DNA of 41,828 bases from a virus (IMGVR_UViG_2541047798_000006), one strand, 5' to 3'. Positions 22,833 through 37,197 are shown, counted from the first letter of the stretch. Notes: generated from the sequence alone by a model not told the origin. A program made the numbers and translations.

Positions 22833-22889
22833 AGCAATTTAGATAATCGTGCAGACTACGCCCCCTCATATCACATGGAAGGTACTACA

Positions 22890-23300
22890 ATGGCTCAGGT
22901 TGCCATTTTTAAACAAATATTCGATAAAGTGCGAAATAATTTAAACTATCACTGGTTTTATTCTGAACTAAAACGTCACAATGTTTCACATTACATTTAC
23001 TATTTAGCCACAGAGAATATTCATCTTGTTCTTGAAAACGATAATACGGTTTTAATAAAAGGACAGGGTAAGGTTGTAAATGTAAGATTTTCAAAAAATA
23101 AATGCCTTATAGAAGCCACCTTAAAAGGATTCAAATCAGGAGAGTTATCATTTTACGAATACAGGAAAAATCTTGCTACAGCAGGGGTTTTCAGATGGAT
23201 TACAAATATCCACGAAAACAAAAGGTATTACTATACCTTTGATAATTCATTACTCTTTACTGAGAACATTCAGAACACTACACAAATATTTCCGCACTAA
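22890..23300 (+). CDS. YbcV-like protein (DUF1398 family)
   Basis: [45 protein letters not shown]... resembles E. coli YbcV as recalled. GGAAGG lies 7 nt before the ATG at 22890 (the track start at 22875 is an alternative). Confidence 0.7.
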
Positions 23301-24997: not shown

Positions 24998-25258
24998 TTA
25001 TGGTATACCGCGCCTCTGAACAGGGGCGCGTTTCTGGCAACAGCTCGTCCCCTTCACATAACCCGGCAGCAACATCCAGGAAGACCTGGCTGCTGCCTCA
25101 TAAAACTCCAGCGCGGCACCTTCAACACGGTCCAGCGAGATGTCCAGGTCAAAAATTTCACCGTCAAAGCGTTTTTTGTCCCGTAACGCTAAAGTTACCG
25201 TAACTTTATTCTCAAAATTGCGGATCCCTTTCACAATCAGTTCATAGTTTTGAGTCAT
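24998..25258 (-). CDS. YdfR-like protein (DUF1327 by recollection), probably frameshifted in its 3' half
   Basis: MTQNYELIVKGIRNFENKVTVTLALRDKKRFDGEIFDLDISLDRVEGAALEFYEAAAR resembles Qin YdfR. After about codon 59 the family-like sequence (QVFLDVAAGL...) continues in the +1 frame down to a stop at 24960. Confidence 0.55.
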   Translation of the reverse strand: MTQNYELIVKGIRNFENKVTVTLALRDKKRFDGEIFDLDISLDRVEGAALEFYEAAARSSWMLLPGYVKGTSCCQKRAPVQRRGIP

Positions 25259-25262
25259 TGAA

Positions 25263-25478
25263 TTACTCTCCCCGTGCCGCCTTACGACGGTCCTCTCTGA
25301 TTTTGAAATACAGGTTAGTCAGATATGTCAGCAGCCCAAACAGCAGACTCCCCAGCACGCCTATTGCCGCCCACTGAGACGGGGAAACCCTGTCCAGCAA
25401 CTGCAGGAACCAGTAGCCCGTTCCCACCGCTGACGTAGTGTATGACACACCTGTTGTGATTTTTTCCATCTGGTCCAT
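25263..25478 (-). CDS. S: Class II pinholin with dual-start motif (phage 21 S-type)
   Basis: [71 protein letters not shown] (71 aa, two TMDs) closely resembles S21 as recalled. Met1 and Met4 (25478 and 25469) give the antiholin/holin pair. The upstream 35 codons of the track ORF are not supported. Confidence 0.85.
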
Positions 25479-25627
25479 ACCCCGTCTCCCGTTATCCGGA
25501 AGCTGACAACAATAAAAAAGCCACCAGTTAACTACTGATGGCTCTGATAACTCATGCAAGCGTCTCAGACGATCCACTGACACTATCGGTGAGTTTAACG
25601 ATACCTTCCATTTGACTGGCTCACTTT

Positions 25628-25789
25628 TTATGATGATGCCGGTGCATTTATCTCCAGCACCAGACTTTCTATCTCAACGCCATACGTTGCATTTTTGGTA
25701 ATATCCGTCAGCGTCAGTGCATTTAGTCCCACTGCCAGACTGTCTTTTATGGCCTGGAATGCCGGGCCAGTACGATGACGTAGTATCAC
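25628..25789 (-). CDS. Possible 53-codon ORF coupled to the preceding gene (hypothetical)
   Basis: GTG at 25789 overlaps the upstream stop (GTGA). Translation is (M)[52 protein letters not shown]. There is no independent SD and the ORF is below the track cutoff. Confidence 0.35.
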
Positions 25790-25974
25790 TCCGGCTCAGT
25801 TGCACCGCTGACCACCACATCACCTTCTGCTGCAATCGCCTGCATCAGGGTATAAGGGGTTATGGCCACCGGACTACCAAACGGCTGCCAGCCCTCTTTC
25901 AGTTTATGTGTCAGCTTTTCCGCAAGATCTGACGGCGGCGCCGCCCTGACAACATCATAGTGTTTAAATGCCAT
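25786..25974 (-). CDS. Small protein, DUF1737-like
   Basis: MAFKHYDVVRAAPPSDLAEKLTHKLKEGWQPFGSPVAITPYTLMQAIAAEGD... The EGW.P.G pattern and the position just upstream of the holin match Stx-type lambdoid phages. The start is taken at the first ATG (25974). Confidence 0.6.
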   Translation of the reverse strand: MAFKHYDVVRAAPPSDLAEKLTHKLKEGWQPFGSPVAITPYTLMQAIAAEGDVVVSGATEPE

Positions 25975-26234
25975 GGTTCTTTCCACCATCTGAAAAATAA
26001 TTCTTTAAAATGCCTGACATGTAATACAGAAAAAAACACAAAACCATACCTTAAATAAAAACCTGATTATCAAGCAGATATGCATGGATAAACTACAAGA
26101 CGAGATATAAACCACCCTGTATTTAAATAAACAATAAACAACATCAGAAAAATAATTCTGCTCTATGGTTTAATTCAAAAATATCATTTATACTTTTCAG
26201 AACATCACCAGCAAGGCATAAACAAGGAAAGTAA

Positions 26235-26570
26235 ATGAAGTGGATTGTGATTGATACAGTTATCCAGCCATCATGCGGAATATCTTTTTCAGTCATATGG
26301 AGTAAAATAAAATTAATAATCTGGTATCAATCGGATGCTTTCTTACCTCCTGAAAGTATATTTACACTGACTCACACAGGCATCATGCTCAATAACAAAG
26401 TGCTGCCTGTAACCATTTACAACGTAGTACCATTCAATAAAACATTCTGGAATTTAATCAAAAACAGCCAGGAATGCCCTACAAATACAGATAACGTATT
26501 GAATGAATGCTTTAATAACCGTTGCACTCTGCAAATATGTCCTTATGGACTAAAACAACAAAGTCCATAA
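26235..26570 (+). CDS. Orphan 111-aa protein, AT-rich, oriented against the late operon (function unknown)
   Basis: ORF preceded by AAGGAAAG 3 nt before the ATG and by a very AT-rich 240-bp upstream region. A strong hairpin lies 35 nt downstream. No family recognised. Confidence 0.55.
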
Positions 26571-26604
26571 GGAGTTTACTCACATCTGACAAAATCAATA
26601 TAAA

Positions 26605-26626
26605 CAGCCCCTCCGGAGAGGGGCTG
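26605..26626 (-). terminator. GC-rich hairpin; likely terminator for minus-strand transcription (and a 3' structure for the plus-strand orphan gene)
   Basis: CAGCCCCTC-CGGA-GAGGGGCTG, a perfect 9-bp stem. On the minus strand it is followed by TTTATATTGATTTT. Confidence 0.5.
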
Positions 26627-27017
26627 GAGAGTGGCGCTATGTGCCATTGCATGGTGCCGGGTGCCTCCCGGTGAATTCAGTACCAGCACCTGAATCCGCG
26701 ATTATCCCATATACCTACTCGCTGATTGCCCCACCGCACAGGGGGATTCACCATGCCAGTTTCTTTTAACAAACTCCCCGCAAACCAGACAACAGTCAAC
26801 CGCCTGAATTGTGAAGTATTTAAAAATTTCTCCCGCTAACTGATACCCGGCTAACAGTCTGGCGTTTTCTTTTTCAGCAACGGGAAAGCAACAACCACCA
26901 CACCCGCCACCAGCACACCGTCAGCCAGCACTGACATTATCCGGCTGCTGCAATGCCATTCACAAAAACAGTAAGCAATCACTTTTTACCGTAACAGGTG
27001 ATAATCCAGATATGTAT

Positions 27018-27344
27018 CTACCCCAGATGAGTAATCCGAAGTTCATCCATACCACAGGTCCTGGCTATTCTGTTGTACTCCTGAACAAGAGCAAATAATT
27101 CTGAATTAGCAACCATGAACTCATCGCAAACCCTCTGTATAGCATCACTATTCAGAATAATAACGTCTCTTCCCGAAAGACGATCAGGAGTACAGAACAA
27201 AACTGTCAAACGGCTGAAGGCCTTTGCTCGTGCTGCATTGACTATATCAATACGCTGCCTAAGGATGAAACACCCCGACGCCTCATCAATATTCACTCTA
27301 CCCACACCATATGAATGATAAATATTTAATGCTGAAAAAACCAT
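27018..27344 (-). CDS. Orphan protein of about 108 aa in the stx-equivalent position (function unknown)
   Basis: The track ORF 27018-27371 starts at TTG; the first ATG is at 27344. AT-rich, no family recognised. A candidate promoter lies immediately upstream. Confidence 0.45.
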   Translation of the reverse strand: MVFSALNIYHSYGVGRVNIDEASGCFILRQRIDIVNAARAKAFSRLTVLFCTPDRLSGRDVIILNSDAIQRVCDEFMVANSELFALVQEYNRIARTCGMDELRITHLG

Positions 27345-27370
27345 TAGACCGTATAACAAATATTCAATCA

Positions 27371-27399
27371 ATACTTAACAGAACTTTTATTTTTGACAA
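27371..27399 (-). promoter_or_regulatory. Candidate sigma70 promoter for the orphan gene (TTGTCA-17-AAGTAT)
   Basis: Minus-strand TTGTCA (27399-27394), 17-nt spacer, AAGTAT (27376-27371). Confidence 0.3.
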
Positions 27400-27481
27400 A
27401 CATATAATATTTTCAACAATATCCTGAGCCAGGTATATTTCAGTATAAGGCTCTGCCGGAAGGAATCTGGAAGAATGAATA

Positions 27482-27558
27482 TGGCGCGCTGTACTGGATT
27501 CGAACCAGTGACCGATTGCTTAGAAGGCAATTGCTCTGTCCGGCTGAGCTAACAACGC
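27482..27558 (-). tRNA. tRNA-Arg (anticodon UCU, reads AGA)
   Basis: 77-nt cloverleaf: acceptor GCGTTGT/ACAGCGC, T arm ACTGG-TTCGAAT-CCAGT, anticodon loop CCTTCTAAG, encoded CCA. Confidence 0.9.
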
Positions 27559-27571
27559 TGAATACCGATAA

Positions 27572-27652
27572 TGGACCGCCATCGGGGACCCGCCCCCCGC
27601 ACCAACAACCCTGTTATCGTGTCGTCTGCTCTTCCTGATAAGCTAATGGCGG
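27572..27652 (-). pseudogene. Degenerate tRNA-like element (middle unit of the array; argN-position)
   Basis: Perfect 7-bp acceptor stem CCGCCAT/ATGGCGG plus T-CCA, a D arm TAGCTT...GAGC, and a 5-bp T stem CGGGG/CCCCG with an atypical loop GGCGGGT. I could not fold a canonical anticodon stem-loop. Confidence 0.4.
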
Positions 27653-27659
27653 TTTGTGA

Positions 27660-27735
27660 TGGTGGCCCTTGCTGGATTTGAACCAGCGACCTGGCGATTA
27701 TGAGTCGCTCGCTCTCACCACTGAGCTAAAGGGCC
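27660..27735 (-). tRNA. tRNA with CAU anticodon, ileX-like (tRNA-Ile2, reads AUA after lysidine modification; would be auto-called Met)
   Basis: 76 nt: acceptor GGCCCTT/AAGGGCC, T arm GCTGG-TTCAAAT-CCAGC, anticodon loop ACTCATAAT, encoded CCA. The backbone is close to E. coli ileX as recalled. Confidence 0.85.
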
Positions 27736-27771
27736 GGGAGCAGAATAATAACGGTCCATAATTAATTCCGC

Positions 27772-27798
27772 AATAAAAAACCCGCTCGGCGGCGGGTT
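27772..27798 (-). terminator. tR'-type rho-independent terminator just downstream of pR'
   Basis: Minus strand AACCCGC-CGCCGA-GCGGGTT followed by TTTTATT. It lies between Q and the tRNA array. Confidence 0.7.
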
Positions 27799-27878: not shown

Positions 27879-28700
27879 TTACCTAGTTACCTTTTTTAAC
27901 TGCCGCTCAGCCCATGCTTCTTCAATATCAAACCGGGTCACCAGCGCATCATAGAATTTCTTAACTGTTTTTTCCCATGACGCGCGTGTTATCTGGTTTG
28001 TCACCTCGCATATAGCATTAAATGCCTCCGTTGATGGTAGTCTTTCATAGCCACGACCACCACAACGCTGGCAGTCTCTGATAACAGGCATACCACGTTT
28101 TACCGACTCTTCACGATGAATGGCGACACCACGCCCACGGCAATCCTTACAGGCGGTGGAAACCTCACCCTTTCCGCCACACTCCGGACAGGCAACTTTT
28201 ACCACCTCCCTGACTTTTTTCCATTCTTCCCAGTAAGACGGATACACACCTTTCGTACACTTTGCCCATACCGGCGGCTTACCATCCGGATACTGGACCT
28301 TGTTTGTAAAAACTACGCTTTCAATAAATTTTTCCCCATAGCAACAAGGGCACTGCTTTTTACTCGCTGCGCTGCGGGCATAATCCTCAAAAGCGTACGA
28401 AGCCATAATGCGCATCACTAACGGTTTTATTTCTGCCGGAAGTTTTCTCAACGCCGCCACACGATCGCACCGACTGAGTGCATAATCTGCCAGTAATTCT
28501 GTTGCCCGCGCCCTGTCATTCATACTGATGCCCATTTTCCCCAGGAACGCAGAAAACCCCATCTCAGCCCGATTCTGTGTCATGCCCTGCGCGGCCATCA
28601 CATCAGTGATACTCAGCGCATCTTTTGACGTTGAGGCCGATACATCGGTCAGGCCAGGGGATTTTGGGGAGTAGTATTTCGGTAAATCTTCCAGTTTCAT
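27879..28700 (-). CDS. Q: Late antiterminator Q (QuuQ/YdfT type with DnaJ-like CxxCxGxG zinc motifs)
   Basis: 273-aa ORF MKLEDLPKYYSPKSP...ITDVMAAQGM...CPECGGKGEVSTACKDCRGRGV...CQRCGGRGYERLP...AERQLKKVTR, collinear with Qin QuuQ as recalled. It sits directly upstream of pR'/tR'. Confidence 0.8.
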   Translation of the reverse strand: MKLEDLPKYYSPKSPGLTDVSASTSKDALSITDVMAAQGMTQNRAEMGFSAFLGKMGISMNDRARATELLADYALSRCDRVAALRKLPAEIKPLVMRIMASYAFEDYARSAASKKQCPCCYGEKFIESVVFTNKVQYPDGKPPVWAKCTKGVYPSYWEEWKKVREVVKVACPECGGKGEVSTACKDCRGRGVAIHREESVKRGMPVIRDCQRCGGRGYERLPSTEAFNAICEVTNQITRASWEKTVKKFYDALVTRFDIEEAWAERQLKKVTR

Positions 28701-30946: not shown

Positions 30947-31102
30947 TTACTCCTCAGGTTCGTAAGCTGTGAAGACAGCGACCTCCGTCTGGCCGGTTCG
31001 GATTCGTACCTCGCAGAGGTCTTTCCTCGTTACCAGTGCCGTCACTATGACGGTTAAACAGATGACGATCAGGGCGATTAACATCGCCTTTTGCTGCTTC
31101 AT
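30947..31102 (-). CDS. hok: Hok-family type I toxin (HokD/RelF-like, 51 aa)
   Basis: MKQQKAMLIALIVICLTVIVTALVTRKDLCEVRIRTGQTEVAVFTAYEPEE with AAGGAGAAG SD. The upstream leader begins GGTGCTTGAGGCTATCTGCC (about 31269), resembling the hok mRNA 5' tac element. An upstream in-frame ATG at 31159 is in the mok position. Confidence 0.85.
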   Translation of the reverse strand: MKQQKAMLIALIVICLTVIVTALVTRKDLCEVRIRTGQTEVAVFTAYEPEE

Positions 31103-31312
31103 AGCCTGCTTCTCCTTGCCTTTCGGCACGTAAGAGGCTAACCTACATGTGTCTAGCATGAAATTGGCCTCAGATTAATGTTAAGCGTCTTGCAGGACGC
31201 GTAATGTTAACTGGGGCTTTTCTCTATCTGCCGTTGGTGTTATGCCCGAGGCAGATAGCCTCAAGCACCCGCAGCCATTCTACTTAACTACCGTTACCTC
31301 GCCAATGTGAAA

Positions 31313-37140: not shown

Positions 37141-37197
37141 TTTCTGGTGACGTTTGGCGGTATCAGTTTTACTCCGTGACTGCTCTGCCGCCCTTTT
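37141..37197 (+). ncRNA. dicF: DicF sRNA (ftsZ-targeting Hfq-dependent sRNA) with its intrinsic terminator
   Basis: TTTCTGGTGACGTTTGGCGGTATCAGTTTTACTCCGTGACTGCTCTGCCGCCCTTTTT is the K-12 DicF sequence as I recall it. The terminator stem is GGCGG...CCGCC followed by a T-run. Confidence 0.85.

Follow-up and report, generated by a model that had tools for sequence, protein, structure and literature searches.

The interval between the late antiterminator gene and the lysis genes of this prophage is, with high probability, an accessory-cargo slot of a lambdoid prophage in which iraL, the gene of an RssB anti-adaptor, is the main element; we regard this as the best explanation of the locus as a whole. 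The window analyzed here is a 41,828-nt stretch of viral DNA (IMGVR_UViG_2541047798_000006), in which an initial sequence-only reading had seen, at this locus, an AT-rich island of two convergent orphan genes that were candidates for an anti-phage function. Instead, the region is an already-known lysogenic-conversion cargo slot that is mostly ordinary and explained, and the family of a 92-aa protein is the only part of the locus left without explanation.

Organization of the cargo slot

Approximately 1.5 kb between the tRNAs and the lysis genes holds the cargo, and the late operon runs on the minus strand. Read along that strand, the locus begins with the late antiterminator gene Q (27879-28700; Pfam PF03589 (Antiterm), 2.6e-55), followed by a tR'-like intrinsic terminator (27779-27798), a tRNA gene with a CAT anticodon (27660-27735; Met according to ARAGORN, tRNA-Ile in the PGAP annotation of the identical gene), a predicted tRNA-Arg (TCT) gene (27482-27558), the gene for the 92-aa protein (27018-27296), a truncated DUF3927 ORF (26851-26982) and an STnc100-family sRNA gene (26596-26785). 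Then comes iraL (26235-26570) on the opposite strand and finally, again on the minus strand, the lysis cassette, which is headed by a DUF1737 ORF (25786-25989) that marks the left boundary of the iraL cassette and includes the P21-type holin gene (25263-25583). The placement downstream of Q, tR' and two tRNAs, in the cargo slot ahead of the lysis genes, had been read correctly from the sequence, while the DUF3927 ORF and the STnc100 gene, both lying between the two ORFs, had been overlooked.

Positions 25023-27777 of the window are 97.3% identical at the DNA level to the potB prophage of the uropathogenic E. coli strain CFT073, where the gene order is the same: Q, tRNAs, an unannotated ORF, DUF3927, iraL on the opposite strand, DUF1737 and holin. 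Between Q and the cargo, CFT073 has an IS200 element and three tRNAs, the window no IS and two tRNAs. The slot itself (after Q-tR'-tRNAs and before the lysis genes) is shared with the stx and moron cargo of lambdoid late regions; however, the cargo here modulates the stress response and lies on the opposite strand with a probable promoter of its own, while stx is a late-operon-dependent toxin.

Base composition is not uniform across the slot. Against a GC content of 0.515 for the whole window, that of 25990-26570 was 0.28-0.36 (0.28 upstream of the plus-strand ORF and 0.35 inside it) and that of 26950-27550 was ~0.38-0.41 (0.41 in the minus-strand ORF), so that the lower GC noticed earlier holds for these two stretches; the very AT-rich promoter region ascribed to the plus-strand ORF is likewise present. 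Between them, however, GC rises to 0.48-0.52 (26500-26950) and the low-GC tract is interrupted. Promoter-like sites across the region were at chance level (six found in the scan and 5.7 expected).

Several features were also observed around the slot and elsewhere in the prophage. In genomes with 100% identity, PGAP annotates DUF1327 (24998-25258, minus strand) and the DUF1737 ORF as incomplete pseudogenes, and at ~25552-25611 it places a "tail fiber protein" of 20 aa; parts of the region near the lysis genes may have decayed. Past the lysis genes lies a second AT-rich patch (GC ~0.31 at 22900-23200), where DUF1398 (YdfO-like) and YlcI/YnfO genes (22875-23300, plus strand) form another opposite-strand cargo pair. 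Rfam models further matched a sok antitoxin RNA (31097-31270, minus strand; 118 bits), which adjoins the hokD annotated in the RefSeq region of identical sequence, as well as a DicF sRNA (37142-37193, plus strand; 76.7 bits).

Identification of the plus-strand gene as iraL

The plus-strand ORF (26235-26570) is identified by its sequence as iraL, which encodes an RssB anti-adaptor of the IraM/IraL/RssC family. All 111 of its 111 residues are identical to those of CFT073 IraL (WP_000871291.1), and the protein sequence is the same as UniProt IRAM_ECO27. Moreover, the NCBIfam IraM model NF007393 matched residues 1-110 with 162 bits (cut-off 121; 4.7e-48), the crystallised IraM fragment in PDB 8twd was matched at 9e-32, and PGAP gives the name IraM to the gene in many E. 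coli genomes that carry the region at 100% identity. With at least 95% identity to CFT073 iraL and no overlap with iraM as the marks of the IraL branch, the protein belongs to that branch, the N-terminal fragment of IraM being only 65% identical. The Shine-Dalgarno sequence AAGGAAAG precedes the ATG at 26224-26231, as the sequence-only reading had reported together with the 111-aa ORF itself; its description of the gene as unrecognisable, on the other hand, does not survive the NCBIfam match.

The same family includes IraM (YcgW) of K-12 and RssC of Salmonella. Of 78 N-terminal residues, the window protein shares 51 with the IraM fragment that was crystallised, and the overall identity of IraL and IraM is ~59% (PMC4045071). 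In a residue-by-residue comparison with the RssB contacts of IraM named in PMC10844676, C14, F18, W30, I61 and Y62 are kept, while T13S, H63N, I64V and L75I are substituted. The two branches also differ in how they act: IraM is induced by Mg starvation and contacts both RssB domains, whereas IraL acts in logarithmic phase and, in two-hybrid assays, bound only RssB's N-terminal domain (PMC4045071).

Hryckowian et al. (2014, PMC4045071) showed for CFT073 that IraL binds RssB and keeps RpoS stable in log phase, and in later work iraL mRNA rose by 1.6 log2 after a shift to 37 C and IraL was raised in a fur mutant. Because the protein in the window is identical to the experimentally characterised one, we infer the same function for it here. 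In the lysogen, IraL would be made from its own promoter and would bind the adaptor RssB, which would then no longer hand RpoS to ClpXP, and RpoS would hence accumulate during exponential growth, as was shown for the identical protein in CFT073. The earlier proposal of uncharacterised morons expressed from the lysogen by their own promoters is borne out for this gene by the 5' RACE and RpoS assays in CFT073 (PMC4045071), but the gene had already been named.

A minority allele of the iraL promoter

In CFT073 iraL is transcribed from a sigma-70-type promoter with a start mapped by 5' RACE, the 5' end of the mRNA being ACATCACCAGCAAGGCATAAACAAGGAAACCA (PMC4045071). The RACE start ACATCACCAGCAAGGCATAAACAAGGAAA (PMC4045071) matches the window at 26202-26230, which puts the transcription start at 26202 by inference. 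Since the RACE sequence aligns from 26202, TATACT at 26189-26194 is placed as the -10 element and the leader has 33 nt; start-site sequence, -10 and leader are all the same as in CFT073. The cassette thus delimited would be self-contained, with an AT-rich sigma-70 promoter region (25990-26234, plus strand), a 33-nt leader and a 111-aa coding sequence.

The promoter differs from that of CFT073, however, by a 1-bp deletion in the probable -35 element and by three other substitutions upstream of the ATG. One C is missing between 26172 and 26173 (TGGTTTA-ATTC at 26166-26175, compared with TGGTTTACATTC in CFT073), so that the probable -35 TTTACA, which is the best -35-like hexamer, is destroyed (TTTA-A); the other changes are G to A at -1 and CC to GT just before the ATG. 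This exact allele was the best match in 163 of the 1438 iraL-positive complete E. coli genomes and is therefore a minority allele. It may correspond to the iraL2 variant of JJ1886.

To judge from its position, the deletion may lower expression. Taken further, the iraL copy in the window would be transcriptionally weak or silent through the altered -35 or spacer, and the cassette would be carried without raising RpoS in the host. The three kinds of change listed above and the minority status of the allele both speak for such a loss, and the authors who characterised IraL themselves noted an iraL copy with a -35 change of which they did not know whether it was expressed (PMC4045071). Yet the -10, leader, Shine-Dalgarno sequence and coding sequence are all intact, the protein is 100% conserved, and the allele persists with an intact ORF in many genomes. 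A silent copy is a real but minor possibility.

The hairpin is the terminator of an STnc100-family sRNA

Between the two ORFs, at 26605-26626, lies a perfect 9-bp GC stem with a 4-nt loop (fold z-score -4.1; 0 of 200 shuffles folded as well). It had been noticed earlier and taken as an insulator on which the two genes converge; the hairpin is there, but it is more than an insulator that two protein genes share. A T-run follows the stem on the minus strand only; on the iraL strand, GAGAGTGG comes after it. The Rfam model of STnc100 (RF02076) matched the minus strand from 26785 to 26596 over its full length (model positions 1-206 of 206) with 130.5 bits (gathering score 47; E 1e-29), and the 9-bp stem coincides with the terminator helix of that model. 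Thus the hairpin, which has both the GC stem and the minus-strand T-run of a rho-independent terminator, serves a full-length STnc100-family sRNA as its intrinsic terminator.

The sRNA would probably act in trans and be terminated by the hairpin. No promoter was identified for STnc100 in the window, and it may instead be processed from an upstream transcript. From the other side, the same terminator is the 3' hairpin that iraL transcripts meet, and it is the only hairpin downstream of iraL. A weaker possibility is that iraL read-through across the hairpin, which lacks a tail on that strand, acts antisense to STnc100; if so, such read-through would couple RpoS stabilisation to sRNA output.

STnc100 copies occupy the interval from Q to the lysis genes in other lambdoid phages too: directly after the tRNAs in phage Nil3, before a large esterase-like gene in PhiR5_1, and, in Stx2 phages, 75 nt downstream of stx2 (PMC12370729). 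In EDL933, 11 copies are transcribed (PMC5331693), and a 2026 preprint relates STnc100 to the PasD sRNAs. The copy in the window resembles these prophage sRNAs in its full-length match, terminator included, and in its position, but differs in that it converges with iraL instead of following stx2B or adjoining a nanS-p esterase gene. Homology to Stx phages begins at ~26600, and the iraL cassette therefore spans ~25990-26599, i.e., the stretch between the sRNA terminator and DUF1737.

A truncated DUF3927 ORF

Upstream of STnc100 on the minus strand, a 43-aa ORF (26982 to 26851) matched Pfam PF13064 (1.7e-27) and phrog_1470, "TciB-like". It resembles in this respect the TciA/TciB pair of the P1 type (TerB-like plus DUF3927), but two parts of that arrangement are missing. 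Compared with the canonical 50-aa proteins of two relatives (L014 and L007), homology begins only at MSVLADGVLV and the N-terminal half is different; furthermore, the TerB-like gene that precedes DUF3927 in these relatives is absent from the window. Because the N-terminal half is non-homologous and the TerB-like gene is gone, the ORF is probably a deletion remnant, and the comparison suggests an internal deletion of a TciA/TciB-like module.

A conserved 92-aa gene missing from RefSeq annotation

The minus-strand ORF is a real gene under purifying selection, but its product differs from the one first proposed. An open frame does extend over 27018-27344 or 27371, i.e., upstream to an ATG at 27344 and a TTG at 27371, as the sequence-only reading had it; the product of 108-117 aa deduced from that frame gives way to a conserved core of 92 aa. 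Homologs in E. coli-type prophages share 54-63% identity and those in more distant contigs 33-41%, and the distant ones are all 91-95 aa long and start at the position of the GTG at 27296. An AGGAG Shine-Dalgarno sequence precedes the equivalent GTG in L014, and L007 has a good Shine-Dalgarno sequence with an ATG; the upstream extension, on the other hand, lies in another frame in L014 and is interrupted by a stop in L019. In view of the common start of the homologs, the AGGAG in L014 and the broken extension in L014 and L019, the product most likely has 92 aa and would run from the GTG at 27296 to 27018. In the window itself a weak Shine-Dalgarno-like sequence precedes this GTG, and none of the three candidate starts has a strong one.

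The sequence TTGTCA-17-AAGTAT, formerly taken as the promoter of this gene, is present at 27399 to 27371, but it scores 8/12, under the scan threshold in a region at chance level, and its -10 shares bases with the TTG that would start the 117-aa version. The ORF is co-directional with the late operon, and the 92-aa gene would most likely be transcribed together with it or else from its own weak promoter. The best promoter-like match of the region, TTGACA-16-AACAAT (10/12; 27393-27420, plus strand), is oriented away from the 92-aa ORF and leads into tRNA-Arg in antisense; it is probably a chance match in AT-rich DNA.

That the ORF is only a chance open frame would explain why RefSeq has no annotation for it, and the lack of a domain match and of a strong Shine-Dalgarno sequence at its three starts would fit as well. 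The 279-nt core occurs in 1185 of 5426 complete E. coli genomes (~22%; 1172 of them at ≥99% identity), and PGAP annotates nothing under it in every RefSeq genome inspected. Yet the comparison with the copy in L003 (67% identical) is that of a coding sequence: dN/dS was 0.27, no indel occurred over 92 codons, and the differences fell at the three codon positions as 25/23/43, i.e., 43 of 91 at the third. Moreover, the family extends to 33% identity with conserved length, its profile phrog_2873 matches the product at 3.8e-70, the AlphaFold2 model is confident, and the start signals of L007 and L014 are good. We consider a chance frame highly improbable. The RNA-seq table of CFT073, which lists RefSeq genes only, hence has no entry for the 92-aa ORF.

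Fold and neighbors of the 92-aa protein

The AlphaFold2 model, built from a nine-sequence alignment (pLDDT 88.9), consists of a helix (residues 3-35), a short beta-hairpin and a second helix (50-81). Neither the protein nor its family profile gave anything meaningful in sequence searches of Pfam, NCBIfam, PADLOC and PDB. With the model as query, Foldseek returned only generic helical hairpins from PDB and BFVD and nothing at E ≤ 0.001; the best match, a prefoldin beta-like fold, reached only E 0.026 with an rmsd of ~8 A and was taken as a resemblance of topology only. Across the scans as a whole, RHIM, Trp_leader and AbiEii came up weakly, under threshold, and were put down to chance. A possible link to P1 tciC found no support, and searching the literature for c1428, the old CFT073 tag, returned nothing. 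By tblastn against 50,697 phage records, the protein was found in mEp460 only.

Synteny gives hints about the gene without settling the matter. Copies are found repeatedly between Q and holin, on the late strand, and the variable module of the relatives reads: an AraC-type regulator gene (optional), the 92-aa gene, a TerB-like gene (optional) and DUF3927. Homologs lie directly downstream of an AraC-type (HTH_18) regulator gene, whose product has 241 aa, in L003, L014 and L018-L020, and of a GerE regulator gene in L013; they lie directly upstream of TerB-like plus DUF3927 in L007-L010, L014 and L015. These neighbors are not universal, being absent in L011 and L012. In L003-L006 an IS3-family element is inserted between the AraC-type gene and the 92-aa homolog and replaces the N-terminus of the latter. 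In L007 the homolog is flanked by terminators in the manner of a moron.

Nor do the two genes of the island belong together. In phage mEp460 the 92-aa gene and DUF3927 are present at 99% identity, with other genes in place of iraL, and vB_EcoS-640R1 and its relatives carry iraL and STnc100 without the 92-aa gene; iraL and the 92-aa gene therefore assort independently in phages. Among complete E. coli genomes, the iraL promoter region was found in 1438, the 92-aa core in 1185 and the whole 2.1-kb block in 861.

Two functional readings of the 92-aa protein have to be weighed against this background. The adjacency of its homologs to AraC-type or GerE regulators and to TerB-like plus DUF3927 would agree with a small modulator of these transcription regulators or of the TerB-like/DUF3927 membrane pair, here an orphaned remnant in a window without the TerB-like gene and half of DUF3927. 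However, L011 and L012 lack such neighbors, no known regulator or anti-activator resembles the protein in sequence or, at a significant level, in fold, and the gene stays ≥99% conserved without the supposed partners; we regard this role as unlikely. The other reading, inherited from the first look at the sequence, makes both ORFs uncharacterised lysogen morons with an anti-phage, toxin or exclusion function. It draws on the classic cargo slot, the AT-richness of both ORFs, the lack of a known relative of the 92-aa protein and the moron-like setting in L007. It is very unlikely, since the plus-strand gene is iraL with a known function, the two genes assort independently and the promoter-like motifs are at chance level; furthermore, PADLOC gave no match at E ≤ 1 for IraL, the 92-aa protein or DUF3927, which speaks against the proposed anti-phage candidacy. 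Nothing points to a toxin or defence role for the 92-aa protein.

Implications

Within the preferred explanation, a lambdoid cargo slot with iraL as its main element, the helix/beta-hairpin/helix protein of 92 aa might represent an unstudied prophage cargo family, perhaps a modulator, in the lysogen, of its AraC-type or TerB-like/DUF3927 neighbors; this is, like an antisense action of iraL read-through on STnc100, a speculation to which we give little weight. Its absence from RefSeq makes the gene invisible to transcriptomics and proteomics built on RefSeq annotation. As for the island itself, what looked like a mystery is known cargo that modulates fitness and virulence, with no new toxin or defence system, and iraL acts as a switch, gained by horizontal transfer and enriched in uropathogenic E. 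coli and Shigella, through which RpoS rises in growing cells.
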